NCBI GenBank assembly: GCA_021845665.1
Contig: JAJZVO010000008.1
Coordinates: 12,448 to 76,447, forward strand
Direction of reading: 5' to 3'
Length of the DNA stretch: 64,000 nucleotides
Origin: Bacteroidota bacterium
Lineage (GTDB): Bacteria; Bacteroidota; Ignavibacteria; Kryptoniales; JAKASW01
How positions within the stretch are numbered: the first letter of the stretch is position 1; every line of letters starts with the position of its first letter. The notes below the pieces were generated by a model. It did not search any database and was not told where the DNA came from. It saw nothing but the letters and a program-made list of their open reading frames with translations. A program made the translations under genes and the position numbers. This document shows, one piece after another, positions 1 to 38,948 of the stretch.

Positions 1-408
1 CTTCACCGTGGCGGCGTCCTGCTGTGCGTTCCCGTTCAACAATCTTACCGAATAGATAATCTTGACACCGGCTGCTCTGGCAAAGCTGAAGAGCGCATCG
101 ATATCGGCATGAGTGGGATTGATGTTCGGCATGTCGACCGTCCCGCCGCCGATACGTAAATTCTTTATTCCGAGTTCCCTGAAGAGGTGTACCATCTCGC
201 TATCGCTGGAGTCGAAAAGATGTCCCTGCACGCCGTTCACATTATCTCTCAGGCTTGCGGCTTCAAAGCTTTCGCCGATGAAGCCTGAAGGTATCTTCAC
301 ACCGTTGACATGTGTATCTATAGACAGTGTAACGGATGACTGACAGAATGCGGTTGCCGTAACAAGAATTATAGAGAAGAAAACAAGAGGTAATTTAGAT
401 GGATTCAT
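1..408 (-). CDS. GH79-like secreted glycoside hydrolase, N-terminal fragment (gene continues past window start)
   Basis: Absent from the ORF track because the window edge truncates it. Reverse translation from ATG 408..406 is open in frame to position 1. It reads MNPSKLPLVFFSIILVTATAFCQSS (signal peptide) ...LRIGGGTVDMPN..ADIDALFSFARAAGVKIIYSVRLLNG. These are the same N-terminal TIM-barrel motifs as the paralogs at 425..2242 and 5930..8071. Confidence 0.7.
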   Translation of the reverse strand, partial: MNPSKLPLVFFSIILVTATAFCQSSVTLSIDTHVNGVKIPSGFIGESFEAASLRDNVNGVQGHLFDSSDSEMVHLFRELGIKNLRIGGGTVDMPNINPTHADIDALFSFARAAGVKIIYSVRLLNGNAQQDAATVK

Positions 409-424
409 TATTCTGAATGATTAG

Positions 425-25317: not shown

Positions 25318-26769
25318 TTAGTATCGGGGCAGAGTGGGATCTATTTTGTTAGTCCACTCATCGATTCCGCCGATAAGGTTCCTGACATACTTGAATCCCC
25401 GCTGCCTCAAATACGCTGCAGCCTTTGCACTTCGTCCTCCCATCTTGCAGTGTATCACTATCTCACGAGACGGATCGAGCTCGCCGATCCTTTTCGGCAA
25501 TTCCGATAATGGAATAAGCGGCACACCAAGATTGACGATCTCATACTCGCGCGGTTCACGGACATCGAGTATGAAGACGTTCTCTCCGTCATCGAGACGG
25601 GCTTTCAACTGCTCCACAGTGATCTCGGTTTTCTCGTCGACAGCCGGTCGGGATATGCCGGTCTTGTCTATGCCGCAAAATTGCTCGTAGTCTATCAATG
25701 CACGTATCGTCGGACTGTCGCCGCAGATCGGGCACTCCGAATTCTTTCTAAGTTTGAGTTCGCGAAACGTGAACTTGAGCGCATCGAAAAGTACGAGTCT
25801 GCCGATCAGAGGATTTCCCTCGCCGAGGAGTTGCTTGATTACCTCTAGCGCCTGCAGGCTCCCGATTATTCCGGGCAGCACCCCCAGCACTCCGCCCTCT
25901 GCGCAGCTCGGTACCAGGCCGGGAGGCGGCGGCGCAGGATACAGGCATCTGTAGCAGGGCCCCCGTCTTGCGTCGAAGACGCTTACCTGGCCGTCGAACC
26001 GCAATATGGATCCGTAGACGTTTGGCTTTCCCAGAAGGACGCACGCGTCATTCACAAGGTACCTTGTAGGGAAGTTGTCGGTGCCGTCTACAACCACATC
26101 GTAATCGGCAAACAAGTCCAGAGCATTGTCCGAGGAAAGCCTGGTTTCGTAAGTTTCTATGGATATGTTCGGGTTTATCCCTTCGAGTGTCTCGCGTGCA
26201 GAATCGAGCTTGGATCTGCCGATATCCCGAGTCGAGTGAAGAATCTGCCGCTGGAGATTTGTCTGGTCGACTACGTCGAAGTCGACGATTCCCAATTTCC
26301 CTACTCCTGCCGCTGCAAGATACATTCCAACAGGTGATCCAAGCCCGCCGGCTCCAATCATCAATACTTTCCCGGACTTGAGTTTCTTCTGCCCATCCAT
26401 ACCGACCTCGGGAATAATAAGGTGCCTGCTGTAGCGCAGCACCTCGTCGTTCGAGAGTTGGATTTCGCTCTCTACCTCCTGAATATCCGCATCCGCCCCT
26501 CCGGCTATCGACGGGATAATGCTTATCGTGTCCTTCTCACCGACGGCGGTTTTTTCCTTAGCCAGATACCTTATGTCTTCATCGTTCACATAAATATTCA
26601 CATAGCTTCTGAATGTGCCGTCCTCAGAATAGAGGTGTTGTCTTATCTGATCGAATCCTTCAGTCAGGTTAGTCAGGACCTCCCCGACTGTGGCTCCTTC
26701 GACCTCGACCACGTCTTTTTTGCCGGTAAAGGGGCGGAGGGGAGTGGGGATTAGAACTTTTATTGCCAT
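25318..26769 (-). CDS. moeZ: Fusion protein: CysO/ThiS/MoaD-like ubiquitin-like sulfur carrier + MoeZ/MoeB E1-like adenylyltransferase + rhodanese
   Basis: Start taken at the second ATG (26769), with AGGAGC 8 nt upstream. Residues 1-91 form a beta-grasp module ending IIPSIAGG (GG at 26502..26497). Then come the E1 domain (LMIGAGGLGSP, DFDVVDQTNLQRQ, CYRC...CPIC) and rhodanese (IVIHCKMGGRSAKAA). Confidence 0.85.
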   Translation of the reverse strand: MAIKVLIPTPLRPFTGKKDVVEVEGATVGEVLTNLTEGFDQIRQHLYSEDGTFRSYVNIYVNDEDIRYLAKEKTAVGEKDTISIIPSIAGGADADIQEVESEIQLSNDEVLRYSRHLIIPEVGMDGQKKLKSGKVLMIGAGGLGSPVGMYLAAAGVGKLGIVDFDVVDQTNLQRQILHSTRDIGRSKLDSARETLEGINPNISIETYETRLSSDNALDLFADYDVVVDGTDNFPTRYLVNDACVLLGKPNVYGSILRFDGQVSVFDARRGPCYRCLYPAPPPPGLVPSCAEGGVLGVLPGIIGSLQALEVIKQLLGEGNPLIGRLVLFDALKFTFRELKLRKNSECPICGDSPTIRALIDYEQFCGIDKTGISRPAVDEKTEITVEQLKARLDDGENVFILDVREPREYEIVNLGVPLIPLSELPKRIGELDPSREIVIHCKMGGRSAKAAAYLRQRGFKYVRNLIGGIDEWTNKIDPTLPRY

Positions 26770-26850
26770 TTTATTGCTCCTCATTTCTCGATCTAAAAAT
26801 TGTCGGTATCATACTACGGGCAGTCTGTCGCGATTTTCGATAAGACCAAC

Positions 26851-27318
26851 TCAAACCGGTCCGGCTCTCTTTCCAACGTCGGCTGAATCTCGCAGATTCT
26901 GCTCGACCGAGAGGTGCCTTTCCAGGAATTTATCCCTCGATTCTGAGAGCTCCCAGGCAGTCATCACTTTAGCTTCGCCTCGATCGACCGCCAGGACGAC
27001 GTAGGTGAACCAAGGGAGGGCATGCTCTCTGTCAAACTCGGAAGGTATTGCAGGATGATCGGGATGTGAGTGATAGAAACCGAGGAGTTCCAGACCCTTT
27101 TCGGTGGCGATCCTCTCAGCCCGCATATATTCTCCCGGTGTCACAAAGAACCTTCTCCTGCGGTTTTCTTCCTGGTAATTGTGGAGCTCGAACACATCGC
27201 TTACAATCCGCTTCCCGCCATCGGTCTTTCCCAAGATTATTCCGCAACATTCCTCCGGGTAGCAAGACATTCCGTGATTTTCGATTTTGTCAGCCAGCTC
27301 TTTCAGAATGATAACCAT
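26851..27318 (-). CDS. mec: JAMM/MPN+ metalloprotease (Mec+-like)
   Basis: 155 aa with EECCGIILG (catalytic Glu) and GFYHSHPDHPAIPSEFD (the H.H...S..D JAMM motif). Its ATG directly abuts the cysM stop (TGAATG). Confidence 0.85.
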   Translation of the reverse strand: MVIILKELADKIENHGMSCYPEECCGIILGKTDGGKRIVSDVFELHNYQEENRRRRFFVTPGEYMRAERIATEKGLELLGFYHSHPDHPAIPSEFDREHALPWFTYVVLAVDRGEAKVMTAWELSESRDKFLERHLSVEQNLRDSADVGKRAGPV

Positions 27319-28332
27319 TCAGCCATTCTTCGGATGTTCCGGATCGGTGTGCATCATTTCCGTGTCCCAGAACACATCGGATCCATAGCGGGAACCGCTG
27401 TCCGGAAAGACGGTCACGATGATGCCCGACCCGATTTCGAGTGCAAGTTTTAACGATGCGGCCATAGCAGCGCCGCTCGAAATGCCGACGAACAGCCCTT
27501 CTTCCCGCGACAGACGTCTAACCATCTCATAAGCTTCGTCGGTAGAGACAGCAAGCTCTTCGTCTGAGACAGACGGGTCGTAGATGCCCGGCACAATTGA
27601 AGTCCTCAGGTGCTTCAATCCTTCGAGTCCGTGCAGCGGAGAGTCGGGTTGAAATGACACACAACGAATCGCAGGATTGAACTTCTTCAGACGACGCGAT
27701 GTGCCGACGAAGGTCCCGGTTGTGCCAAGCCCCGCCACAAAGTGAGTCACCGTTCGTCCCGATTGTTCCCATATTTCCGGTGCAGTCGTCCTGTAATGCG
27801 CCATCCAATTTTCGGGGTTATTATACTGGTCGGGATAGAAATATTTGCCCGGTTCAGCGGCTATAATCTCTTTGACGAGCTGTTGGGCCCCATCGGTGCC
27901 CGTGAGCGGATCTGTTAGAATTATCTCCGCTCCGTAGGCCCGCAGGGCGGCTTTTCTTTCCTTGCTCGCATTGGCAGGGAGCGCAAGCGTAACACGATAT
28001 CCTAGCACACTTCCTATCATCGCGTAAGCTATTCCGGTATTTCCGCTCGTCGCGTCGATTATAACTTTTTCTCCGGTAAGCGCACCGGACCTCTCGGCAT
28101 CTCGGATCATGGCAATAGCCGCCCTATCTTTGACAGACCCCCCAGGGTTGAACCATTCGGCCTTCGCGTAGATCGCGGCGCTCTCGATTCCCTCGGTGAG
28201 TTTTCGAATGCGGAGAAGCGGCGTATTGCCTATCTGACCGAGTATAGAATTCCTCTCCGGTTCGCGTTGATCCGTCAGCGTCTGTTCTAAGCGAGTGCCG
28301 CCGCTTTCCACCGAGAATGGTACCTTATTCAA
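27319..28332 (-). CDS. cysM: Cysteine synthase, CysM/CysK fold (PLP-dependent)
   Basis: Carries GNTPLLRIRKL, NPGGSVKDRAA (PLP Lys), TSGNTG and GISSGAA. The start is uncertain. TTG 28332 overlaps the stop of the upstream small ORF (TTGA). GTG 28311 is also possible. ATG 28587 would add a 100-aa low-complexity extension not expected for this family. Confidence 0.8.
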   Translation of the reverse strand: MNKVPFSVESGGTRLEQTLTDQREPERNSILGQIGNTPLLRIRKLTEGIESAAIYAKAEWFNPGGSVKDRAAIAMIRDAERSGALTGEKVIIDATSGNTGIAYAMIGSVLGYRVTLALPANASKERKAALRAYGAEIILTDPLTGTDGAQQLVKEIIAAEPGKYFYPDQYNNPENWMAHYRTTAPEIWEQSGRTVTHFVAGLGTTGTFVGTSRRLKKFNPAIRCVSFQPDSPLHGLEGLKHLRTSIVPGIYDPSVSDEELAVSTDEAYEMVRRLSREEGLFVGISSGAAMAASLKLALEIGSGIIVTVFPDSGSRYGSDVFWDTEMMHTDPEHPKNG

Positions 28333-28616
28333 ACTTCTGTCTTCTGATGAGCCGTTGCCACGATTGAAATGTTCACGGCCCTTTGCCTGTCTATTGCGCG
28401 AAGTTTCTTGCATCGTTTGCAAATGCTTTTGTATTGCGGATAGAAGTCTTCCGGGCTTCTGTTTCCGCAATAGCGGCACTTGGGTGATTTCCGGTACCGG
28501 CGTTTCTGAAACGACACGTTTCCGTATCTCCGAAACCTCATATAATGTTTCCAGCAGAGTCCGCGCGCCGCGGGTTCGCCGGCACATCCATCCACGCTAC
28601 ATAAATAGCTGTTCAA
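28329..28616 (-). CDS. Possible small Cys-rich zinc-ribbon protein (frame alternative to a CysM N-terminal extension)
   Basis: Part of track ORF 28329..28706. From TTG 28616 it reads (M)NSYLCSVDGCAGEPAARGLCWKHYMRFRRYGN...CRYCGN...CKRCKK. That gives a C.4C..GLC..H motif plus two CxxC pairs. Its stop overlaps a candidate cysM start (TTGA). Alternative starts are GTG 28595 (1 nt after the cysG stop) and ATG 28706. Confidence 0.4.
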   Translation of the reverse strand: MNSYLCSVDGCAGEPAARGLCWKHYMRFRRYGNVSFQKRRYRKSPKCRYCGNRSPEDFYPQYKSICKRCKKLRAIDRQRAVNISIVATAHQKTEV

Positions 28617-30063
28617 GAAAATTATTCCTTTCTTGCCCGGGGATATTTGGAGAAGAAGATTTGCAGCGAACTGAATTGGCCGAGAGCGACATAACCGTTT
28701 CTCCAATAACGATAATTCCCGGGAGATCAGTTTCTATCCTGCCGGCTTTTTCAGAAATGTCACCGACCGTTCCCATCACCAGCTTTTCTTCGTCGGTAGT
28801 ACCACCGAATATTACCGCAGCAGGCCTGAGCCAGGGGACTCCGTTGGATATCAGTTTCTCCGAAATGGGCCCGAGGTTCTTCGTCCCCATGTAGATTACG
28901 ATTGTGTCGGCCCGCGCGGCAGAAGCCCAATCGACACACTCCCGTGCCTTAAGCGGATCTTCGTGGCCCGTTACAAAGAGAACGCTCGAAGCCTCTTTGC
29001 GATGTGTGAGAGGGATGCCTTTCGAGGTGGGTATGCCGGTGCCTGCAGTAATTCCTGGAACGACTTCGGCTTCAATACCCGCCCGCTGCAGTGCCTCCAC
29101 CTCTTCTCCACCCCGGCCGAAAACGAAAGGATCGCCGCACTTGAGTCTCACGACTATTTTTCCCTCGCGAGCTTTCCGGATAAGGATGCCGTTGATCTCT
29201 TCCTGTTTCATGCAGTGAGTTCGCGCCCTCTTGCCGACGTAGATCAGCTCAGCTGCAGAAATTACCTCGCGAAGGAGTTCTTGAGAAACCAATGCATCGT
29301 AAAGAACTACCTCCGCAGACCGGAGCATCCTTAAACCTTTCACGGTGATCAAGTCCGGATCGCCAGGTCCCGCACCGACAAGAAACACTTTTCCAGTAAC
29401 ACCCCGGTTATCCTTCAAGCTTTTCATTGAAAGATTTCTTGCGCCGATCTTCCTCTCCCGTCCATCGCTTCCCCTTTTTATCATTCTTCCAGTTCTGTGG
29501 AGCTTGCTTTTGACGTATTGTTCTTGTGCTCTCTTCCTGCTCTCGTAATCCGGAAACGTCTCCCGGATACCCGGCCGCAACCGTCCGATCTTCTCGATGG
29601 TCTCAGGGTATCCCGTGCCGAACTCATCTGCTATCCTGTCACGGATTATTTTCCCAGCGGTCGGGCTCAGGCCATTAGTCGAGACTGCGACTTTCAAATC
29701 GCCTTTAGAAAACACCGATCCGAGATAGAAAGTGCACAAATCGGGTTCGTCTGCAACGTTGACCGGAACATTAAGCGCGGAGGCTTCTGAATAGACCTGC
29801 TTTTGCACGGCAGGGTCATCGGTCGCTGCTATAACGACGGTATATCCCGCCGCATCGCCGTCAGTATATTTCCGCCGCTTCAGAGAGACTCCTGACGAAA
29901 CGGAATGCGCCTCCATCCACGGAGTGAACGAGGGTGAAATCACAGTGACATCTGCTCCGCAATCGAGAAGGCTCCTTAGTTTTTGTTCGGCGACATTTCC
30001 TCCTCCCACGACGAGGACACGCCGTCCGTTAACTTTCAGGAATATGGGATACAATCGGTTCAT
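28597..30063 (-). CDS. cysG: Siroheme synthase (precorrin-2 dehydrogenase/ferrochelatase + uroporphyrinogen-III C-methyltransferase)
   Basis: 488 aa. N-terminal Rossmann domain (RVLVVGGGNVAEQKLRSLLDCGADVTVISP). C-terminal SUMT domain (VFLVGAGPGDPDLITVKGLRMLRSAEVVLYDALV, VRLKCGDPFVFGRGGEE, GITAGTG). Confidence 0.9.
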   Translation of the reverse strand: MNRLYPIFLKVNGRRVLVVGGGNVAEQKLRSLLDCGADVTVISPSFTPWMEAHSVSSGVSLKRRKYTDGDAAGYTVVIAATDDPAVQKQVYSEASALNVPVNVADEPDLCTFYLGSVFSKGDLKVAVSTNGLSPTAGKIIRDRIADEFGTGYPETIEKIGRLRPGIRETFPDYESRKRAQEQYVKSKLHRTGRMIKRGSDGRERKIGARNLSMKSLKDNRGVTGKVFLVGAGPGDPDLITVKGLRMLRSAEVVLYDALVSQELLREVISAAELIYVGKRARTHCMKQEEINGILIRKAREGKIVVRLKCGDPFVFGRGGEEVEALQRAGIEAEVVPGITAGTGIPTSKGIPLTHRKEASSVLFVTGHEDPLKARECVDWASAARADTIVIYMGTKNLGPISEKLISNGVPWLRPAAVIFGGTTDEEKLVMGTVGDISEKAGRIETDLPGIIVIGETVMSLSANSVRCKSSSPNIPGQERNNFLEQLFM

Positions 30064-30632
30064 CCACGACTCCTCTTGGCCGCTTGTTCGGACTCTCCGG
30101 CTACCGGAAGAGCCGACAGTGCATCCTTCTCAACGGTTACAACATCAATGTCACCTGCGATAGCAAGATCGTAACCGTAAAGGAGGTATTCACGAATCAA
30201 CGGTACCAATTCCTCGTCCCGGGGGGCAATAAGTTTCAAAGGCTCAATGTCTATCCTGAATTTTTCGGTAAGATGCATCAGCGCGATGTTTTTTCCGTCC
30301 AGGTCCCTCAGGATCACTTCGGTGCGAACATTGAGGTCCTCACCTTCGTCGTCTGAGATCATCAACAACGGCCGAATCATTTGAACCGGGTTGCCGGATA
30401 GAAGCACGTTGAGGGCGTCCTCGTAATCTTCTCCTCCGGAAAAGCCATGGATCGCATCTTCGCCAGCCAGCATCAACTTAGAGATCTCGGACCAGACTGT
30501 AAGCGACAGGTTTATTGAAGGGAGTCTTTCGATCCTGTCGACAACGCCAAATTTCTGGGCCGCTTCTAACCGACGAACTGTATACGCTGACCGGAGAGGA
30601 CTTAATGATGTTGCCGGCCTCATGTTGATCAT
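30060..30632 (-). CDS. Stand-alone PUA-like protein resembling the N-terminal domain of ATP sulfurylase
   Basis: About 190 aa. Start placed at ATG 30632, which overlaps the sir stop (ATGA). Its own stop overlaps the cysG ATG (ATGA, 30063..30060). Pattern L.L......L..G.....GF....DYE......G..V....P.L.....E...L.....V.L.D.DGK.IA resembles the Sat PUA_2 domain (from memory). No catalytic HxxH/GRD region. Confidence 0.5.
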   Translation of the reverse strand: MINMRPATSLSPLRSAYTVRRLEAAQKFGVVDRIERLPSINLSLTVWSEISKLMLAGEDAIHGFSGGEDYEDALNVLLSGNPVQMIRPLLMISDDEGEDLNVRTEVILRDLDGKNIALMHLTEKFRIDIEPLKLIAPRDEELVPLIREYLLYGYDLAIAGDIDVVTVEKDALSALPVAGESEQAAKRSRG

Positions 30633-32422
30633 GCGGCACATTCCCCTTCGCCTGACGACGCGGCAAAAGCCTTATCCTCCCCGAGATCGATGAATAGTTC
30701 CCCAGTTAGTCTTTCCGGACGCAGGTCCGCCAAATCCCTGACAACATCGCGAAATGCAACTATACCGACGCGTTCATAGAATTGCCAGAAATTCTCACTT
30801 TCGATTCTGTTTGAAAGATATCTCTTGATAATTCTCGTTACGGCCTCTGGAGCATAACGTGCGGGAATTCTCCCTAGCGTTCCTCCAAATGTGTGCCTGC
30901 CGGAGTTCATTCCACCGCCGATCGAAATCAGATACGAAGGTATTTCTCCACCCGCTATCTTCTTTGTGGCACCGTGAAATCCTATTGCGGCTACATGATG
31001 CTGACCGCATGAATTCGGGCAACCGCTTATTTTTATGCGAAGCCCATCCAGAAGGGCGTTCCAGTCGGGATGCCGCTGAAGAAGTTGAGTTAGTTCCTTT
31101 CCGAGTGCACGCGAATGAGTGATGCCGAGATTGCAGGTGTCCGCACCCGGGCATGAAGTTACATTCGCTATTTCCTGAGCGCCAGCCTGGTGAAGTCCCG
31201 CCCCTTTCAATTCGTGATAGATTGACGCGATATCGGAAGACCTGATCCATCTCAGCACGATATCCTGCTGAGCGGTGGTGCGTACCATGCCGTTGGTGAA
31301 TTTATCCGCAATCCTGCCAAGCTCAAACAGCTGATCGACAGTGTAATCTCCGATAGTCGTATTCACATAGACCACGTTGTACCCGCTCTGTCTTTGAGGG
31401 AACACATTGGAATTCAACCAATGGTTAAACTCGTGATCTCCGTTCGATTGCGGAATACATGGATGATCGACCGGCAGATAGCCCTCCTCTTCCCCTATCT
31501 CCACTTCGGGGAATGTTCTTTCTGAAGCAAGTATCTTTTCTCTCTCTTGCACAACGAGCCGTTTAAACTCTTCGAAACCAAGTCTCCAAAGGACGTATTT
31601 CATCCTCGCCTTCGACCTGATCTTCCTGTTGCCGTGATCGTTGAAAACCCTGACGATAGCTTCGGTCGTTGGAATAAGCAGTCCGGCAGGGAGAAACTCT
31701 TCAAGAACGTCAGCGACACGCGGCTGAGCCCCGAGTCCCCCACCGACGAAAACTTTGAACCCGGGGACAGGTGTACCGTCGACATCTCTTACTGCTGCGA
31801 CGAATCCGATATCGTGTATCCAAGGAATTATCGCGTCGCGTTCATCGGATATCCCCGAAAAAGAAATTTTGAATTTTCGCGGGAGAGCCTGGCTCAGCTC
31901 GTTCCGCAGGAAATGTTTTGCAAGGAGATGAGAATATGGAGTCACGTCGAACGCTTCGTCAGCGGAGACTCCGGCCAAAGGAGACCCGACTATGTTGCGA
32001 ACGGTGTTTCCACACGCCTCACGCGTCGTCAGGCCGGCTTCATTCAAGCTCTCCATCAACTCCGGAACGCTTTCGAGTTTTACCCAGTGAAGCTGGATAT
32101 CCTGTCTTGTCGTGACGTGCGCGATGCCGTCAGCGAATTGTCTTGCAATACTTGCGAGCCGCCGGACCTGCAGTGAGGTCAGAAGTCCGTAAGGAACCTT
32201 TACGCGGACCATGCTGAATCCCTGCTGATCGGGTCTCTGACCATAGATGCCCAACTGGAGCCTGAACTTTTTGAACTCCTCCTCAGAAATGTCACCGATC
32301 TTGAAGCGCGCAATCGCACTCCTCATATTTTTCGCATCTTCAGCATAAGCTTCGGATGTATCTATGCCTGCACTATAAGTGTGCGCTTCGTTCAGGTCCA
32401 ACTCAATCTCCTCCTTTTGCAT
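30629..32422 (-). CDS. sir: Assimilatory sulfite reductase hemoprotein (siroheme/[4Fe-4S], ferredoxin-type NiR/SiR family)
   Basis: 597 aa. Duplicated NIR_SIR ferredoxin-like and 4Fe-4S/siroheme domains. Cluster-binding motif TSCPGADTCNLGI....GCPNSCGQHH. Confidence 0.9.
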   Translation of the reverse strand: MQKEEIELDLNEAHTYSAGIDTSEAYAEDAKNMRSAIARFKIGDISEEEFKKFRLQLGIYGQRPDQQGFSMVRVKVPYGLLTSLQVRRLASIARQFADGIAHVTTRQDIQLHWVKLESVPELMESLNEAGLTTREACGNTVRNIVGSPLAGVSADEAFDVTPYSHLLAKHFLRNELSQALPRKFKISFSGISDERDAIIPWIHDIGFVAAVRDVDGTPVPGFKVFVGGGLGAQPRVADVLEEFLPAGLLIPTTEAIVRVFNDHGNRKIRSKARMKYVLWRLGFEEFKRLVVQEREKILASERTFPEVEIGEEEGYLPVDHPCIPQSNGDHEFNHWLNSNVFPQRQSGYNVVYVNTTIGDYTVDQLFELGRIADKFTNGMVRTTAQQDIVLRWIRSSDIASIYHELKGAGLHQAGAQEIANVTSCPGADTCNLGITHSRALGKELTQLLQRHPDWNALLDGLRIKISGCPNSCGQHHVAAIGFHGATKKIAGGEIPSYLISIGGGMNSGRHTFGGTLGRIPARYAPEAVTRIIKRYLSNRIESENFWQFYERVGIVAFRDVVRDLADLRPERLTGELFIDLGEDKAFAASSGEGECAA

Positions 32423-32467
32423 TCTTCCGGAAAATCATCGCGCGGTCATCGCCGGAATTCTCTATAC

Positions 32468-32506
32468 AATGAAAAAGCCCTTCGCCGATATTCGACGAAG
32501 GGCTTT
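32468..32506 (-). terminator. Intrinsic terminator inside the 5' leader of the sir operon (attenuator terminator candidate)
   Basis: Minus strand: AAAGCCCUUCGUCG-AAUAU-CGGCGAAGGGCUUU followed by UUCAUUGUAU. Stem is 14 bp including one G-U pair. It lies about 45 nt upstream of the sir ATG and 25 nt downstream of the leader ORF stop. Confidence 0.7.
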
Positions 32507-32531
32507 AAAAATCTGATTTGTAGGTTCTAGT

Positions 32532-32642
32532 TCAATTCATAGACCCGCACCTTCGCGAAACCGAGGCGATCATCATAGAACGACAACAACAGGCGCATGC
32601 TTGAACTGTCTCTGTCTTCCGTGAAGGTCTTTGGTTATTCAT
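32532..32642 (-). CDS. Candidate regulatory leader peptide rich in Cys/Met codons
   Basis: 36 codons, read by hand and too short for the ORF track: MNNQRPSRKTETVQACACCCRSMMIASVSRRCGSMN*. The Cys run is at 32597..32583 and Met-Met at 32576..32571. Confidence 0.5.
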   Translation of the reverse strand: MNNQRPSRKTETVQACACCCRSMMIASVSRRCGSMN

Positions 32643-32650
32643 GACAATAG

Positions 32651-32679
32651 AAATTAGAAATACTTAATTATTTTGTCAA
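32651..32679 (-). promoter_or_regulatory. Candidate sigma70-type promoter of the leader/sir operon
   Basis: Minus strand: TTGACA (32679..32674), a 17-nt spacer, then TAATTT (32656..32651), which ends 8 nt before the leader ORF ATG. The -35 lies in one arm of a 9-bp inverted repeat. FCB-type promoters may follow other rules, so this is tentative. Confidence 0.35.
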
Positions 32680-32790
32680 GTTTTAAGCGCGGGAATATTC
32701 TAAATTGACAAAAGTCGAGGCCCATTGACACTGTGCCGCCGGAGAGCCGCCTAATGAAGGTTCAGGGCTGAATGAATGGACCGACGATTT

Positions 32791-32845
32791 CAAATATCAG
32801 ACCGCCATCCATCGCCGGAAGGTTTCATTCGCATTCTGATATTTG
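32791..32845. repeat. Perfect 11-bp inverted repeat abutting the GH38-like gene stop codon
   Basis: CAAATATCAGA (32791..32801) and TCTGATATTTG (32835..32845) with a 33-nt GC-rich spacer. The stop codon is at 32846..32848. No U tract follows on the minus strand. Confidence 0.6.
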
Positions 32846-35800
32846 TCAGTTCCCTTCGATTCTAATCGTTTCAATCCGGAACGGCTTGATGACAAACTTG
32901 AAGCCGGTTGTCGTGGAAGGAAGTCTCCGTTCGTCGCGCTCAACGGCGTCGCACTTCCAGACCGAATCGATACGGACCAGCGGAGTAGAGACACTGACGG
33001 TATCCGTAGTACCGTTCATTTCAATGAAGCGCATTATAGTCCCGCGATTATTTTCGGCGCGTTTCCAATCGGAGAGCACGACATTGCGCGAGCTGACGGT
33101 CACGTAACTCTTCTCCGGGCTGAACACGGAACTTCGCCGCCAGTACTGCGCGTCGTTCGGGGTTACCCTGTCGACTTCGATTGGAGTCATTTCGTTCCAG
33201 CCGAACCTGCTCATCTTACCCGGCGTAAGTGCCCGGCCACTCGTCATGAGATATCGAAAAGTAAATTCTCCTCCCTGTGCGGCGACATAGTTGGTTTTCC
33301 AATAATTGTTCATGATATATGAGAATACGGTGCCTGCCCGCTTGCCGAATGTCGCCGGCCATTTTCCGCGGACGATATTGCCGAAGGTAACGAGGGAAGC
33401 ATTCACGGGCACGATTTCTGCCGTGGTGCCGCCTTCAGATGCAGCCACCCAATGCTGGACGGAGAACCATTCTCTTCCTGCACCTGGGAGCAAATCACGC
33501 GAAGGATCGACATAGCCGTTCTGAGTTTCGTACCGGAACTCGGGATCGTCCGTGGAAAAAGGAAAAGCGAAGTAAGCAGCTTCCTTGGTATAAACTCTCT
33601 TTTTGTAAATGCGGTCGACAAACTCGATTTTCTTTTCCCCGTTGAAGAGGATGATCTTCGTTTCAATTTCAGGAGTGTTCTTACACGAACTTCGGAGTAA
33701 AGCGACTGTGCCGTACGGTTCACGCGTCACGGAAACCAGCCGGCCGTTCTCTGCGCGGCTAATCGCGAGTTTCACTGCGGTTTTCCCATGGCCGTCTGGT
33801 CCAGGGAACTGCAGAGGTGATTCGTTCCCGCTCGATACATACACATACTGATCGAAAAGATACGGACCCGATTGATTCACGAGCTCTTTACCGAGCTGTC
33901 TATCGAAAATACTTTTCACCGCTCCACTGCTGGAATCCAGGACTATGCGATAGTATCGGTTCTCAAGTGTGTCCGTTAACGGTTCGGCAGCACTTGAAAT
34001 CGGAATTGCCTTCGTCTTCTTGAGGACGAAACACTTATATCCGAGCGGAGGTATTGGGCCGCTTTCGAAGCGGACCTTTTGTACGGTCTTCCACTTGTTC
34101 AATACCTGGAAGGGCACATCAGAGCTGTCGTGGGCGTCGTAGATGCGGCATCTCAGCGGGATGTCTGCATCTATCATTCCACTCCTGGCCCAGTTAAGCG
34201 TGTTGAATGCGACGAGCGTTTCCGCTCCCGCACCGGTCTGTTCGGCGATCGCATCTGCGCTTGTTCTTATTATGTTCATGCAGTCATTTCTCGCCTGTAG
34301 AGCAAACAAATGCTTCGCCGCCAGCTGGCCGACGGACTGCATGCTCCCCGGGTCTGAGACATCTTCGGAAGATCCCCATGTGTGTTCATCATAGAGAATG
34401 ATATTTTGCCACATGTTGTTTATGAGCGAGCGGCTCAATTCTATCCTGGGGTCAATCAGAGATGTCAGAGTGGAGAGCTTTTCGGCCGAAAGTGCTCTCT
34501 GCATGGTCTCACGGTCGATCGCGGCATATTTCGCGTCCGACGCGATTCCATCTTCCCAGTACGGACCTCCATCGCCTCGAATGACGGGTATGTCGCCTCC
34601 GAATTGCCTCTTGATATAGGACATCGCTTCCGCCACGCCGGAGTACTGCAAATGCGGATATGCAAACAGGCTGTCCCATCTGCCGGCGAGCGATGCAAAT
34701 CCGGGATTCATATACGAGTTTTCGTGCTGGTCGCCGAAGACTATTACGCCGTTGGATTTATACGAAGGTTTGTCGAAGAACCCCAGGAATCTCGGCAGCG
34801 CATCTTCTCCGATTTTTATGCCGGGTTTCACGCCGAATAGGCGCGCCATCTGAGCGTAGCGCTTCGTGTACCACATGAACACTTTTTTTCCGTCGGGCCC
34901 TTCCCACCAAAATGGCGTCTTCGCATCGAGTCCGCCGAGACGGAGGATCGGAGCATGACCGTTGTTGCTCGCCGCCTCGAAGTATTCAATGCCCGCGTCC
35001 GCCAGGACAGAGGCATACGACCACGAGTAAGAAGGGACATCGGTTGTGTTCGCGTAATCGAAGGGAAGATTGTGCTTCCGATCAAAACGATATGCCGGAT
35101 AGAGCGAACGTATCAAAGTTTCCGTCGATGCGAATCCAGTCAGCAGGTTCGCATACTGTGCCGGTACGAACAATTTCCCTTCGGCGGCAAGCTTCAGGAA
35201 TCTATTTTTTTCAGCACTGCTTCTCTCCGCGAAGAAATGCTGGACAGCCCAGAACCCATCGGGACTATAGCTGAAATCGGGATGGGACTTCACGAGACGC
35301 ATGGCCTCAGCGATCACCTGGCCTTGAAGAAGCGCTACCTTGGGCCTGTAATCTGTGAAGCCGACGTCGAGGTGTACACTGGGAATCATGAAGACTTTCC
35401 ATTTCCTCGCCGGCGAAAGTATCATCTCGAATTGTTTCATATTTCCGGCTGCAACAACCGAAACCAGTGCAGCCGTTCCGGGCGAAAATTCAGCGACTTC
35501 AAACGATGCTTTCTGTTCGCCGAACCCACAGGTGTCGATCATTGTCCTGTGGTAATCATGTCCATCGATTGAAATTGAGATTCGAACGCTTTTGGCTGGC
35601 CGACTCAACGACGCAAAAGCGTCGACGATCTCTGAGAGTCCGCCCCCGGCGCGCTTATAGAACACGGTCGGCTCGACGCGGACAGATACATCGCGGGGAT
35701 CGAATTTATTTCGAGGGTAATTAAGAAGCTCGAGTGCATCGAAATCGAATCCTGAGTTGCTCGATGCGTTGTGAGCTGGAGGGTTGTCGAAGGCACTGAG

Positions 35801-36355
35801 CGTCAGCGTGTTCACTCCACGTTTAAGATAGCCGGTCGGGATCTCGATGCTGATGACGTCATCCAGAATTTTGCCGCCGGACTTTTCGGCATGCCAGCGC
35901 GGATGCTGAAAGGCTTCCCCGACATGACCGTTGACGTTCAACCTCAGTACCGATAAACGCCGCCTGGCACCCATGCCGCCGCCAAGCAGATCGATATTCG
36001 TAAATGCCGCCTTGAACTCATACGTACCGGCAGGCCGTGCGTTAAGTCTGAAGCGAATGGTCGGTGATGGGCTGTTGCGACCGGCCGGGCGGCTTTTCCC
36101 GGCGGGCAGGAAGGCGGGCCAGTCATTCCACGAGCTGCGGCCTATCGTATATATCACGTCGGTCAACGGAAGCGTATGCTCGCGCCGCGTGCGCGAACCG
36201 TGCATGGCGCGAAACTCCCGCGAAGAGTGATCGAATCTTCCAATTCTCCACAGTACTTCGGGAGAGGCGCTGCCTGACACAGGAAGCATGAAAACCGACA
36301 TTCCAATCGTGTACAGCCGAATGGTGCTGCTCCGCATTTTCCTCTTTCCAATCAT
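32846..36355 (-). CDS. GH38-like alpha-mannosidase family protein (secreted)
   Basis: Central IPSVHLDVGFTDY, FVPAQYANLLTG and ILYDEHTWGS resemble GH38-type hydrolases. Start moved from 36538 to ATG 36355 (or 36337, which has GAAAGAGGAAA upstream). The first 60 track codons run through the upstream terminator hairpin. The signal-like N-terminus is MRSSTIRLYTIGMSVFMLPVSGSASP. Confidence 0.65.
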   Translation of the reverse strand: MIGKRKMRSSTIRLYTIGMSVFMLPVSGSASPEVLWRIGRFDHSSREFRAMHGSRTRREHTLPLTDVIYTIGRSSWNDWPAFLPAGKSRPAGRNSPSPTIRFRLNARPAGTYEFKAAFTNIDLLGGGMGARRRLSVLRLNVNGHVGEAFQHPRWHAEKSGGKILDDVISIEIPTGYLKRGVNTLTLSAFDNPPAHNASSNSGFDFDALELLNYPRNKFDPRDVSVRVEPTVFYKRAGGGLSEIVDAFASLSRPAKSVRISISIDGHDYHRTMIDTCGFGEQKASFEVAEFSPGTAALVSVVAAGNMKQFEMILSPARKWKVFMIPSVHLDVGFTDYRPKVALLQGQVIAEAMRLVKSHPDFSYSPDGFWAVQHFFAERSSAEKNRFLKLAAEGKLFVPAQYANLLTGFASTETLIRSLYPAYRFDRKHNLPFDYANTTDVPSYSWSYASVLADAGIEYFEAASNNGHAPILRLGGLDAKTPFWWEGPDGKKVFMWYTKRYAQMARLFGVKPGIKIGEDALPRFLGFFDKPSYKSNGVIVFGDQHENSYMNPGFASLAGRWDSLFAYPHLQYSGVAEAMSYIKRQFGGDIPVIRGDGGPYWEDGIASDAKYAAIDRETMQRALSAEKLSTLTSLIDPRIELSRSLINNMWQNIILYDEHTWGSSEDVSDPGSMQSVGQLAAKHLFALQARNDCMNIIRTSADAIAEQTGAGAETLVAFNTLNWARSGMIDADIPLRCRIYDAHDSSDVPFQVLNKWKTVQKVRFESGPIPPLGYKCFVLKKTKAIPISSAAEPLTDTLENRYYRIVLDSSSGAVKSIFDRQLGKELVNQSGPYLFDQYVYVSSGNESPLQFPGPDGHGKTAVKLAISRAENGRLVSVTREPYGTVALLRSSCKNTPEIETKIILFNGEKKIEFVDRIYKKRVYTKEAAYFAFPFSTDDPEFRYETQNGYVDPSRDLLPGAGREWFSVQHWVAASEGGTTAEIVPVNASLVTFGNIVRGKWPATFGKRAGTVFSYIMNNYWKTNYVAAQGGEFTFRYLMTSGRALTPGKMSRFGWNEMTPIEVDRVTPNDAQYWRRSSVFSPEKSYVTVSSRNVVLSDWKRAENNRGTIMRFIEMNGTTDTVSVSTPLVRIDSVWKCDAVERDERRLPSTTTGFKFVIKPFRIETIRIEGN

Positions 36356-36490
36356 GTGCGTATACAATATCACATACAATTTAAGGTGATCTGCGTGACA
36401 AGCAAACACGAAGAGCAAACGAATCGTTATGAACTCCGGGATGGAACGCGGGATGCGCGAATGGCCCGGCCATACTGCGGATAGGGAGGG

Positions 36491-36536
36491 AAACAAAAAA
36501 AGGATGGCAGCCCCGGAAACCGCCGGGCTGCCATCC
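36491..36536 (-). terminator. Rho-independent terminator after the DsrE-like gene
   Basis: Minus strand: GGAUGGCAGCCC...GGGCUGCCAUCC (12-bp perfect stem) followed by UUUUUUUGUUU. Lies 25 nt after the stop at 36562. Confidence 0.8.
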
Positions 36537-36561
36537 AAAATTGACCCATTGTATTGAAGCC

Positions 36562-37110
36562 CTACCAGGCCATCAAAGCGTATCCCATAAGCTGGTATGT
36601 CGGTACGACAGTAAGCGCGGAAAGGGCTATCGTGATGTCCCTATTTACCCAAGCGTGCTTATAACTCATGTCTGCGAGAGCCTGGCCGCAAACATAAATG
36701 ACTACGCCGTTCTTCTTGAGCTCGTTTATTAGTTTAATGTTCGGATTGTCGATACCGAATTTTGCCTTGAACGCCGAGTTGTCCAGGACAATTGGGGTCG
36801 CCGGTCCGTGAATGACGGCCACGAGCTTCATCTGGTCCGGCATCGTCCCTGCCGACGCGAATACGTTTATCAGTCTCGCGATGTGGGCGAGCGCCGGATC
36901 AACCTTGGCGTTGTTCTTCGAAGCCTGAGTCACGTCGAAGAGTATTTTGTAGTTTATGGACTTATCGGGCTGGACGGCGGCGTGAGGCAGCGGGTGAACC
37001 GGGCCGTACCCCTTTATGACGGGGTATTCCCATTTAGTCTGCGCACTCGCGAGGCTCGAAAAGCTCCCGACCAGTAACGCGACGAATAACAGTTTTGTGA
37101 TTCCTTTCAT
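36562..37110 (-). CDS. DsrE/DsrF-like family protein with Sec signal peptide (periplasmic)
   Basis: 182 aa. Signal peptide MKGITKLLFVALLVGSFSSLASAQT. The core (KILFDVTQ..., LVAVIHGPATPIVL, GVVIYVCGQALADM) resembles COG1416/DsrE-like proteins. Confidence 0.6.
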   Translation of the reverse strand: MKGITKLLFVALLVGSFSSLASAQTKWEYPVIKGYGPVHPLPHAAVQPDKSINYKILFDVTQASKNNAKVDPALAHIARLINVFASAGTMPDQMKLVAVIHGPATPIVLDNSAFKAKFGIDNPNIKLINELKKNGVVIYVCGQALADMSYKHAWVNRDITIALSALTVVPTYQLMGYALMAW

Positions 37111-37143
37111 GATGTTCCTCCTCTTATTGATTTTTTTAGTAAT

Positions 37144-37950
37144 TCATTTCTTCACGAAATGCGGTCTCGGTTGGGCGGTGACAAAAGCGGCCACATCGAG
37201 CGCCTGATCCGGTGTAAGGTTTGAGACTTGGTAAGGCATATTGTCGTGAACGAAAGCGGCGAAGTTCTGGAGATGTGCCATCCCCGCGCCATCATTGAAC
37301 GAGTGCTTTCCCCACAATGGCGGGGCAATCTTCGTTCCCTGGCCGTCCATTCCGTGACAGGCGGTGCAGGTCTGAGTGAAGATTTTCTTCCCGGCGACCG
37401 CACTCGGCTTGTGGCGACTCTCGATGTGCTTCAGACCGAGCCAGGGAATTCTTCCGTATATCGGAATTCCCTTGGATATCCAGTGGAAGTAAGTGACTAT
37501 AGCCACCATCGCCTTGCTGTCCGGCAGGAGAGCCTTGCCGTTCATGCTTCTAAGAAAGCACGCATTTGTGCGCGCGATAATGTCATCCACTTGACCGGAG
37601 CGAGATCTGTACGCGGGATACTTCGCGGCGACTCCGACGAGCGAGAGCCCGCCGTTCTTTCCGCCGGGCGAGATCCCTCCGTTGAAATGGCAGCTGGAGC
37701 ACGTGACGCTATCGCCCACATACTTGCTCGCATATTTCTGCGGATCGTTCATGATGTTGTAACCGAGCATCACGGCAGCTCTGATGCTTGCGGGCGCCTC
37801 GTTCAGCGCGGGTGGATTGTACGCCACGCCGTCCACCATCTTGGCTGCTTGCGGGCTCTTCGCGAAGACTGAGTCTCCGTAGTTGGCGGCAATAAAAGCA
37901 CAGACCAACAGTGCCAGGAGCCCCGCCGGCACGAGTAATTTCCTTTTCAT
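37144..37950 (-). CDS. tsdA: Diheme c-type cytochrome, thiosulfate dehydrogenase TsdA family
   Basis: 268 aa with a signal peptide. Two heme motifs, CSSCH and CTACH. AKYPAYRSR, NACFLRSMNG (candidate Cys axial ligand), PPLWGKHSFNDGAGM, AAFVHDNMP and ALDVAAFV match my memory of Allochromatium TsdA. Confidence 0.75.
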   Translation of the reverse strand: MKRKLLVPAGLLALLVCAFIAANYGDSVFAKSPQAAKMVDGVAYNPPALNEAPASIRAAVMLGYNIMNDPQKYASKYVGDSVTCSSCHFNGGISPGGKNGGLSLVGVAAKYPAYRSRSGQVDDIIARTNACFLRSMNGKALLPDSKAMVAIVTYFHWISKGIPIYGRIPWLGLKHIESRHKPSAVAGKKIFTQTCTACHGMDGQGTKIAPPLWGKHSFNDGAGMAHLQNFAAFVHDNMPYQVSNLTPDQALDVAAFVTAQPRPHFVKK

Positions 37951-38006
37951 TTTGTCCTTACCTCCTTGCTTGGAATTTTCTAGAAACCATTTAAGTGTCC
38001 GCGTTT

Positions 38007-38948
38007 CTACCTAAGCGGCATGAAACCGAACTTCCGATAAATCTCGGAGCTTCTCTTGGTTTTCAGGAATTTGAGAAAGTCCTTAGCGGCCTGCGGATGA
38101 GGCGCGTTTGTGAGCATCGCCGCCGAATAAGTCACGACCGTGTTTATCTTTGCAGGTATCTGGACAGCTTCGATCGGATTGCCTATCATTTTCTGGAAGA
38201 AGGCCTCCGTGTACCACACGGGACCTGCATCGGATTTCCTTTCGATGATGCGGATCGGAGTCTGCCTATGATGAATGTGGGTAAGAAAGGTGGTCCCGGC
38301 CTTGACCTTCGTGTCCATTATTTCCTTGACAAGCTTTTCACCACCGGCCTTGCGGTAAGTTGCGATGATAGTATGGGCGACCCCTTCCCATTGCGGATTC
38401 GGCATACTGACCCTCACGTCCGGCTTGCCGAGATCGTTCAATGACGAAACGTGAAGAGGATTCCCCCGATAAACCATGATGGCAAGCCGGTTCCTTGCAT
38501 AAGCTACCGACTCAGTGAAGAGGTGCTTCTCTTTTGTAAGCATGGCAATCCGAGCCTCGCCGGCCGTGAATATGTCCGGCTTGACGGATATTCTCATGTT
38601 GCCTATGACAATCGCGCCCTGCGCGATCTGGTCGAGCAAAATTCCCGGCGGGAGTGTTTCGACGAAGATGCGTTTGTACCGGGGGTATTCTTCCTGGAAG
38701 GCTTTGATCAGGTCGGGTACGACCATAAACTGATTCCCCGCGAAGAAGATGACGAGCTGTGGATCGTTTATATCGCCGTGCAAATCGGGGACATCGTCGA
38801 TACCGGGTACCGTGAATTGTTTCCCTTGTTGCGGAAATGCCGACCATGGTGGGTAGACCCTTTGCGCATTCGCCTTGTGAATGAAGGCGAACGACAGAAG
38901 GGTAAGTGCGAGAAACGTCGTGACGCTCAGTTTGAATCTGGATTTCAT
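38007..38948 (-). CDS. Periplasmic type-2 substrate-binding protein (ModA/sulfate-binding-like), orphan
   Basis: 313 aa with a signal peptide. Carries FFAGNQFMVVPDLIKAFQEEYP and a C-terminal AAKDFLKFLKTKRSSEIYRKFGF typical of ModA-like binding proteins. No ABC permease or ATPase gene nearby. Confidence 0.6.
   Translation of the reverse strand: MKSRFKLSVTTFLALTLLSFAFIHKANAQRVYPPWSAFPQQGKQFTVPGIDDVPDLHGDINDPQLVIFFAGNQFMVVPDLIKAFQEEYPRYKRIFVETLPPGILLDQIAQGAIVIGNMRISVKPDIFTAGEARIAMLTKEKHLFTESVAYARNRLAIMVYRGNPLHVSSLNDLGKPDVRVSMPNPQWEGVAHTIIATYRKAGGEKLVKEIMDTKVKAGTTFLTHIHHRQTPIRIIERKSDAGPVWYTEAFFQKMIGNPIEAVQIPAKINTVVTYSAAMLTNAPHPQAAKDFLKFLKTKRSSEIYRKFGFMPLR

Follow-up and report, generated by a model that had tools for sequence, protein, structure and literature searches.

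How might a bacterium tie transcription of its sulfite reductase and cysteine synthesis genes to the supply of cysteine? The question is raised by a locus of a Bacteroidota bacterium (GenBank assembly GCA_021845665.1, contig JAJZVO010000008.1), which lies within a stretch of 64,000 nucleotides (nt; contig positions 12,448 to 76,447) analyzed here as a whole and referred to as the window. On its minus strand, a small open reading frame (sORF) with a dense run of Cys codons is followed by an intrinsic terminator and then by the gene for sulfite reductase (sir). Control of sulfate assimilation and cysteine synthesis is known mainly via protein regulators (CysB, CymR), together with T-box and S-box RNAs. 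Leader-peptide attenuation is textbook knowledge for the trpL, hisL, leuL, thrL, ilvL, and pheL leaders of Escherichia coli and Salmonella, a list from which, to our knowledge, cysteine has long been missing. Vitreschak and colleagues are said to have predicted, in 2004, attenuators for other amino acids in Bacteroidetes/Chlorobi. Based on sequence comparison, we propose that the element upstream of sir acts as a transcription attenuator of the leader-peptide type, in which the ribosome senses charged tRNA-Cys and thereby controls the sir/cysteine operon, a reading to which we give a probability of roughly 0.8. The anatomy of the leader, its conservation, the codon-type and RNA-type constraints along it, the pairing potentials of its RNA, and the recurrence of the design in unrelated leaders are all directly visible in the sequences.

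A Cys-codon leader ORF and its conservation

The leader and its surroundings comprise the following features.

32679..32651, minus strand: putative promoter, TTGACA (32679..32674), a 17-nt spacer and TAATTT (32656..32651), recognized by conservation
32642..32532, minus strand: leader ORF of 36 codons plus stop, encoding MNNQRPSRKTETVQACACCCRSMMIASVSRRCGSMN, from ORF reading with rechecked coordinates
32597..32583, minus strand: putative regulatory Cys codons TGC GCC TGT TGT TGT (C-A-C-C-C), 4 Cys in 5 codons at codon positions 16-20
32576..32571, minus strand: Met-Met codons ATG ATG, 3' of the Cys run, from ORF reading
32534..32532, minus strand: stop codon of the leader ORF, from ORF reading
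32506..32468, minus strand: intrinsic terminator (hairpin 32506..32474) with a 15-bp stem, a 3-nt loop and the tail UUUUUCAUU, from a terminator scan
32416..25318, minus strand: predicted regulated operon, beginning with the Shine-Dalgarno (SD) sequence AAGGAGGAG at 32416..32408 and the sir start TTG at 32401, from Pfam hits and the alignment of relatives

The 36-codon ORF, its Cys run, and the Met pair are found exactly where the initial annotation of this DNA had placed them, and the terminator hairpin that it reported downstream of the ORF is likewise present, with the claimed 25 nt between stop codon and stem. Taken by itself, a Cys run is no surprise in this window, whose six frames contain two stop-free stretches of 4 or more Cys in 6 codons, versus 0.55 ± 0.73 in dinucleotide shuffles. 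On the correct strand of the 424-nt spacer that holds the leader, the expected number of such runs is ~0.002. The second Cys-rich stretch, at 12459 on the plus strand (KTCNCCRCPGDC), was rejected as a product of chance, because a 984-aa ORF of the opposite strand covers it, out of frame. A search of the spacer against Rfam 15 at E ≤ 10 identified no family at its gathering threshold and only terminator-driven sub-threshold matches. The best of these, L10_leader, reached 27 bits against a threshold of 44 (E = 0.031) and was essentially a match to the terminator, with nothing else below E = 0.3; riboswitch, T-box, and known-leader identities were dropped, as Rfam gave terminator-driven noise only. 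The evidence that appears decisive for a leader element is comparative.

A genome-collection scan with a Sir alignment yielded at least four close relatives, and a metagenome scan with a single protein added L081 (L numbers denote the loci compared). Among the matches listed, Sir homologs share 52-90% identity and derive from metagenome-assembled genomes (MAGs) labeled Candidatus Kryptoniota, Ignavibacteria/Ignavibacteriales, or 'Bacteroidetes'. Upstream DNA was taken from 17 Sir relatives, of which L160 and L162 lie on contigs that end inside the leader, and the window leader was aligned at full length with 13 homologous leaders (Sir 57-87% identical; alignment A3). A Cys-run sORF followed by a terminator precedes sir in every relative with enough upstream sequence. 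Loss of the sORF or its Cys codons from relatives that keep the operon, which the initial annotation had named as evidence against an attenuator, did not occur in any of the 13 further full-length leaders: all of them retain the promoter, the ATG, an in-frame Cys run, the RNA motif UUUCGCGAAGG, and the terminator. L160 and L162 display the same features as far as their contigs extend. A profile of the family built for nhmmer, run against the window and 172 loci, identified a single copy at each locus, with no further one in the window and, among the 172 loci, none away from sir.

The leader peptides themselves differ widely, as illustrated by MRNLLQIPDGMRSCACCCSCMMTDSVSRRCGSLS (L161), MSYRTHSYRSGNSTTCACCCCTCMMTASVSRRCGSVI (L002), MSTTAFSRINEASLCCACCCCTRMMGPLCFREGVITMS (L003), MNIKTPSLTLSNSCGCISRACCCTCTMGSRRFREGVGP (L001), MNTTGNMTLGKGAGSCACCCAIVAVRLRFLEGTSP (L081), and MTSLFSIMVNSTCCPCCCAAVTASCCHEGGRMQ (L171). 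Common to all 14 family leaders is a density of 4-5 Cys in 6 codons, Cys making up 0.95% of codons across the window's long ORFs. One or two Met codons follow the Cys run in 12 of the 14; they are missing from L081 and L171, and from the non-homologous leaders described below, and might add sensing of the second sulfur amino acid. With respect to codon choice, the 14 leaders use 64 TGT versus 25 TGC, and the window's long ORFs 54 TGT versus 97 TGC. The less-favored TGT codon may sharpen the stalling response in the leaders, or merely reflect the UGU repeat.

Up to the Cys run, the leaders vary in the manner of a reading frame. The spacing from the ATG to TGYTGYTGY is 45, 51, 57, 60, or 81 nt, every value being a multiple of three, A3 gaps before or inside the run measure 6, 21, 9, and 3 nt, and the number of Cys copies varies by whole codons. 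N-terminal residues are unconserved, and TGT and TGC interchange synonymously within the run. Right after the run, a 2-nt indel switches the frame and the stop shifts by 5 nt, so that four leaders translate the nearly invariant motif UUUCGCGAAGG as SRRC and the others as FREG, LEG, or the like. These patterns argue that the Cys run is constrained as codons and the UUUCGCGAAGG motif as RNA. Because codon-type constraint extends to the Cys run and RNA-type constraint follows it, the element is better read as an attenuator than as a gene for a functional peptide. Most leaders also keep stop codons in both frames (ATGAnTTGA; 32545..32532 on the minus strand of the window, A3 columns 105-106 and 139-147), and these dual-frame stops might also catch ribosomes that have slipped into another frame at hungry Cys codons of the repetitive UGUUGUUGU.

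The gene 5' of the leader differs between loci (GH38, DsrE, Cys_Met_Meta_PP, LptG, or a divergent Mu-transposase or BatA gene), so the leader element travels with sir, whatever gene precedes it. The sir start of L166, L168, and L170 follows the U-tract after just 23-27 nt, and because of this short spacer sir must be transcribed there by read-through of the terminator. These data also bear on an explanation in which the unit is an independent small gene, producing a Cys-rich micropeptide (e.g., metal- or sulfur-binding) or a dual-function small RNA, with no cis control of sir. Promoter, ORF, and terminator do form a complete transcription unit of ~170 nt, and leader-derived RNAs and peptides of the Sinorhizobium trpL attenuator are known to act in trans (PMC7298713, PMC7968998). 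Such a gene would, however, encode a peptide that is unconserved outside the Cys run and whose C-terminus is read in two frames; it would always lie immediately 5' of sir or sulfate-assimilation operons on the same strand, in three loci at a distance of 23-27 nt that is too short for another promoter, and the conserved, mutually exclusive pairings of its RNA (see below) would be without a role. We therefore hold an independent small gene to be very improbable indeed.

Competing helices and the proposed attenuation mechanism

Three segments of the leader RNA, numbered as in classical attenuators, pair with each other or with the terminator 3' arm (region 4).

32630..32623, minus strand: region 1 (AGACCUUC), candidate anti-antiterminator near codons 5-7, pairing with GAAGGU of region 2
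32559..32547, minus strand: region 2 (UUCGCGAAGGUGC), predicted antiterminator 5' strand inside the ORF, pairing with the terminator 5' arm
32503..32491, minus strand: region 3 (GCCCUUCGUCGAA), terminator 5' arm plus two loop bases, common to antiterminator and terminator

With index 1 at 32642, region 1 occupies 13-20, the Cys run 46-60, region 2 84-96, the stop codon 109-111, region 3 140-152, and region 4 155-169. The window's Cys codons at codon positions 16-20 lie outside the conserved helices.

A single terminator-like site was found on the minus strand in 32000..33200, at 32506..32474, with 15 pairs (8 G-C), the tail TTCATTGTAT, and a hairpin ΔG of -24.6 kcal/mol. Across the family alignment 95.9% of its cells are paired, five pairs display compensatory changes, and none of 500 shuffles matched the observed value on four of five measures.

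A copy of the terminator 3' arm had been noted inside the ORF by the initial annotation; this copy is real and longer than claimed, extending over UUCGCGAAGGUGC at 32559..32547. The terminator and antiterminator energies that the annotation had proposed to compare are -26.7 kcal/mol for the 3:4 duplex and -16.9 kcal/mol for the 2:3 duplex of the window, with -11.8 kcal/mol for 1:2. Nascent RNAs were folded as they exist with a ribosome on the last Cys codon of the run and the terminator 3' arm still unmade. Under these conditions the terminator 5' arm pairs with region 2 in 14 of 14 leaders, forming the antiterminator helix 2:3, and the RNAalifold consensus of the truncated nascent segments is the same helix, with 13 pairs. 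From the full alignment RNAalifold returned the terminator only, and 2:3 emerged only once the 3' arm was removed. In the alignment, 89% of the cells of 2:3 are paired, versus 33-58% in slid registers, and substitutions in loop-proximal terminator bases are matched at the 5' end of region 2 (GGUUUC:GAAACC, GUUUUC:GAAAAC, GUUCUC:GGAGAAC).

The second alternative helix, 1:2, joins A3 columns 13-20 and 124-131 and is 77.7% paired, versus 36-53% in slid registers, with two compensatory pairs. It is part of the minimum free energy (MFE) structure in 6 of 14 untranslated leaders, and its position is shifted in L081, L170, and L171. Region 2 starts 23 nt past the last Cys codon in the window, and its CGAAGG core lies 23-32 nt past that codon across the family. 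A ribosome at the stop codon has left the CGAAGG core 15 nt behind, a distance of 10 nt in the group that uses the other frame.

In the following model, the transcription start, translation of the sORF, ribosome stalling, and each kinetic step are inferred. Transcription would begin from TTGACA-17-TAATTT, with the 5' end at, or ~3 nt from, the sORF AUG. When Cys is scarce, the ribosome would stall on 32597..32583, its footprint covering roughly index 31-75 and hence lying between regions 1 and 2. Left free and cut off from region 1, region 2 would then pair with region 3 once the latter is made; the terminator would be blocked and RNA polymerase could read into sir. When Cys is plentiful, the ribosome would pass region 2 and reach the stop codon at 32534..32532. 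During synthesis of regions 3 and 4, region 2 would be covered by the ribosome or already behind it, where it could pair with region 1, so that the 15-bp hairpin with its U-tract would form and transcription would end near 32470. If the leader is not translated at all (e.g., in read-through from the upstream gene), the classical scheme would predict 1:2 together with 3:4, and default termination. The antiterminator/terminator logic of the initial annotation is supported by the comparative data, whereas the conserved region 1 (32630..32623) had been overlooked and the geometry proposed for Cys-replete cells needs revision: a ribosome at the stop codon was said to mask region 2, yet from its place 15 nt beyond the CGAAGG core it reaches at most the 3' edge of that segment.

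Several observations weigh against this model. In a thermodynamic model with the ribosome placed on the stop codon, pairing of region 2 with region 3 is still allowed in the window, and for this reason the off state would have to rest on kinetics or on the ribosome as a barrier. Folded without a ribosome, the window's own leader still contains the 2:3 pairing, which leaves default termination in untranslated RNA as a prediction of the classical scheme. The helix 1:2 is moderately supported and absent from the MFE structure of the window's own leader, and its exclusion by a stalled ribosome is a steric argument and not one of masking, because the Cys codons lie between regions 1 and 2 and not, as in trp and his, in region 1. 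A consensus promoter scanner made no call at TTGACA-17-TAATTT, owing to the weak -10 element, which has three of six matches. The nascent-RNA energy is better than that of shuffled upstream sequence (≤0.05) in just 5 of 14 leaders, and the energy z-score of the whole leader, -2.57, is dominated by the terminator; energy alone was for both reasons set aside as evidence. Finally, covariation in 2:3 is weak, since both strands are almost invariant: 56 of 500 shuffles match its percentage of paired cells and 126 of 500 its covariation score.

Weak 2:3 covariation would also suit a switch operated in trans, in which an RNA-binding protein or a small ligand binds UUUCGCGAAGG and the Cys-rich ORF is incidental or secondary. 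Region 2 is conserved beyond the needs of pairing and contains the palindrome UUCGCGAA, and protein-dependent leaders (L10_leader, PyrR) top the sub-threshold Rfam matches, though these are driven by the terminator. No Rfam family reaches its threshold, however, and a trans-acting factor leaves unexplained why the ATG is fixed relative to the -10 element, why indels up to the Cys run are multiples of three, why TGT and TGC vary synonymously, and why Cys-run sORFs with different RNA sequences are found in Acidobacteriota. We consider such a switch very unlikely, and attenuation by a ribosome that senses charged tRNA-Cys remains the preferred reading.

Promoter, operon, and neighboring genes

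The sequence CTTGACA is invariant across the family, and a TAnnTT hexamer follows 17 nt downstream in 13 of 14 leaders. The ATG of the sORF lies 8-9 nt past the -10 element in 13 of 14 leaders (8 nt in the window), and these 8-9 nt hold nothing resembling an SD sequence; sir itself has a strong one. Because an SD is missing and the ATG comes 8-9 nt after the -10 element, the sORF mRNA is probably leaderless or nearly so. A further box is found upstream.

32711..32698, minus strand: box TTGTCAATTTAGAA, 19 nt 5' of the -35 element, kept in 8 of 14 aligned promoter regions

This box looks like a -35 region itself (TTGACAAAATAATTAAG), and is a candidate for either an additional -35 element or a transcription-factor (activator) site that would add another level of control.

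The initial annotation had placed the sir start at ATG 32422, a codon that is unconserved. The gene most likely starts at TTG 32401 instead, 6 nt past the SD AAGGAGGAG; relatives start at the aligned GTG/TTG and yield products of 590 aa. With this start, the distance from the T-tract to sir is ~70 nt and not ~45 nt as previously given. Pfam hits in the operon identify a ferredoxin-type sulfite reductase (NIR_SIR), a PUA_2-like protein, a siroheme synthase, a pyridoxal phosphate-dependent CysM-like enzyme, a JAB/Mec-like protein, and a ThiS-ThiF-rhodanese protein. Judged by these domains, the operon combines sulfite reduction with a predicted thiocarboxylate-type cysteine synthesis.

The region around the sir SD bears on a further explanation, namely a translational attenuator of the mycobacterial type, in which the sORF ribosome opens or closes the ribosome-binding site of sir and the hairpin merely ends the upstream gene. 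A probably leaderless Cys-run sORF before cysteine genes is what mycobacteria possess (bioRxiv 10.1101/834739), and the GH38 gene upstream in the window has no other terminator-like site on its strand. Against it, pairing of the Cys run with the sir SD region amounts to no more than an irregular duplex (-10 kcal/mol), the distance from terminator to SD varies between 23 and 96 nt in an unconserved spacer, the terminator persists where the upstream gene is divergent (L166, L170), and the conserved alternative pairing uses the terminator arm, not the SD. Control of this kind is extremely unlikely in our estimation, and termination within the leader is retained as the regulated step in the proposed attenuator.

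A hairpin UUCCGG...CCGGAA is located between the terminator and the sir SD (32424..32457, minus strand). Its counterpart, a CCCGG...CCGGG stem, is confined to the closest relatives (L161, L162, L002) and is missing where the spacer is 23-27 nt. Upstream of the leader, the window harbors a GH38-like glycosidase gene (1230 aa, 32846..36538, minus strand) whose end lies at 32846. L163 carries three genes (1..2043) directly 5' of the leader, encoding a sulfate/thiosulfate-type binding protein, a SoxA/TsdA-like cytochrome c, and a DsrE-like protein. The same three genes are found in the window at 36562..38948 (minus strand), but with the GH38-like gene inserted between them and the leader.

Cys leaders beyond the family and known attenuators

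A generic scan of 172 loci sought sORFs of up to 70 codons that contain 4 or more Cys in 6 codons and have a hairpin with a T-run downstream. It gave 30 matches, of which 29 are on the sir strand and upstream of sir and one is on the opposite strand. L004 (3547..3900) and L172 (2079..2440), whose Sir proteins are 52-54% identical, each carry two divergent units of Cys leader and terminator in tandem, as in MNSQNLHMPKSIDCCTCCCMPYL and, after its stop, MICCLFCCCQCAVIQRGCA, upstream of sir. In addition, non-homologous sORFs with 4-7 consecutive or nearly consecutive Cys codons and a terminator precede cysH, TauE, or sir operons in Acidobacteriota and in one Flammeovirgaceae MAG; Acidobacteriota locus L032 is also among them. 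All of these except L036 were, like the members of the family, among the matches of the generic scan. Their positions on the respective loci are listed below.

L008, 2786..2960: non-homologous Cys leader, Acidobacteriota
L011, 2868..3105: non-homologous Cys leader, Acidobacteriota
L014, 471..625: non-homologous Cys leader, Acidobacteriota
L022, 355..525: non-homologous Cys leader, Acidobacteriota
L036, 4..150: non-homologous Cys leader, Acidobacteriota
L039, 1828..1990: non-homologous Cys leader, Acidobacteriota
L055, 3738..3880: non-homologous Cys leader, Acidobacteriota
L060, 3808..3950: non-homologous Cys leader, Acidobacteriota
L070, 3747..3905: non-homologous Cys leader, Acidobacteriota
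L079, 2089..2230: non-homologous Cys leader, Flammeovirgaceae MAG

Where checked, the next gene after these leaders is cysH (PAPS_reduct) or TauE, followed by sir. Of 15 such units folded as nascent RNA, 14 have no less than half of the terminator 5' arm paired with a segment close to the sORF end. Since non-homologous leaders recur before sulfate-assimilation operons, the same architecture appears to have arisen with unrelated sequences. We rate it an even chance that these elements represent an undescribed, widespread class, with the window's sir leader as its founding example, of Cys-codon leader-peptide transcription attenuators that act as the main cysteine sensor of assimilatory sulfate reduction. 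This class would comprise one homologous, probably leaderless family in Kryptoniota/Ignavibacteria-like bacteria of the Fibrobacteres-Chlorobi-Bacteroidetes (FCB) group, sometimes arranged in tandem, and independent analogs in Acidobacteriota and Cytophagales, with the ribosome as a movable barrier that steers region 2 backwards to region 1 or forwards to region 3.

The element shares with classical attenuators a short leader ORF rich in codons for the end product, an intrinsic terminator ahead of the first gene of the operon, and helices 2:3 and 3:4 that exclude each other, with a candidate 1:2 option; the proposed logic, read-through upon ribosome stalling, is also the same. It differs from them in the amino acid, here cysteine, in the pathway, assimilatory sulfite reduction with thiocarboxylate-type Cys synthesis, and in a sORF that has no SD and is probably leaderless. 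Its putative regulatory codons are moreover placed between regions 1 and 2, and region 2 lies inside the ORF, before the stop codon. The classical leaders have no sequence or Rfam relationship to it.

Closer in their coding content are the polycysteine leaderless sORFs of mycobacteria, such as Ms5788A, which are translational attenuators (Canestrari et al. 2020; bioRxiv 10.1101/834739); attenuation for cysteine mediated by an upstream ORF (uORF) is stated there to be previously undescribed. As in the present family, consecutive Cys codons precede cysteine and sulfur operons, and cis regulation in mycobacteria is cysteine-responsive via ribosome stalling. The mycobacterial device has no terminator, its Cys tract pairing instead with the SD region of the following gene, whereas a conserved terminator and an antiterminator are found here; the two groups of sORFs belong to different phyla and homology between them is not evident. 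The uORFC-8-2 motif upstream of cysS in Rhodobacterales (Breaker laboratory, RNA Biol 2021, PMC8632094) is a predicted ribosome-mediated transcription attenuator and likewise has conserved Cys codons in a uORF as well as a U-run terminator stem. It possesses two tandem Cys codons at approximately positions 14-15, within the first stem, and is restricted to cysS and to one alphaproteobacterial order. By this motif description it is set apart from the leaders studied here, with their 4-5 Cys codons before sir operons of FCB bacteria and a probably unrelated sequence. Candidate Cys leader peptides before cys/cbs operons of Actinobacteria were identified by comparative genomics (Seliverstov et al. 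2005, PMC1262725). These are also short ORFs with a run of Cys codons, but the study identified no terminators or conserved hairpins and proposed Rho-dependent termination for them, whereas terminator and antiterminator are explicit in the present family.

No report of a Cys attenuator of sulfate assimilation in FCB/Bacteroidetes or Acidobacteriota was found, in a literature whose subscription papers were covered in part, so that this absence is no proof. The initial annotation's view that a cysteine attenuator is uncharacterised in FCB bacteria thus agrees with the reports found, with the qualification that cysteine attenuators are known outside this group (bioRxiv 10.1101/834739, PMC8632094).

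The mechanism proposed for the sir leader is conventional; its scope, the taxa, and the amino acid are new, and the advance would be one of scope rather than of principle. If the reading is correct, a terminator/antiterminator attenuator for Cys fills a gap in the textbook list, and the leader described here would be a natural case of classical attenuation from a probably leaderless mRNA. A Cys-codon run followed by a terminator would then also provide a simple signature for the annotation of sulfur-assimilation regulons, and would reveal how cysteine is sensed in poorly studied and mostly uncultured phyla, the Kryptoniota/Ignavibacteria-like FCB bacteria and the Acidobacteriota.

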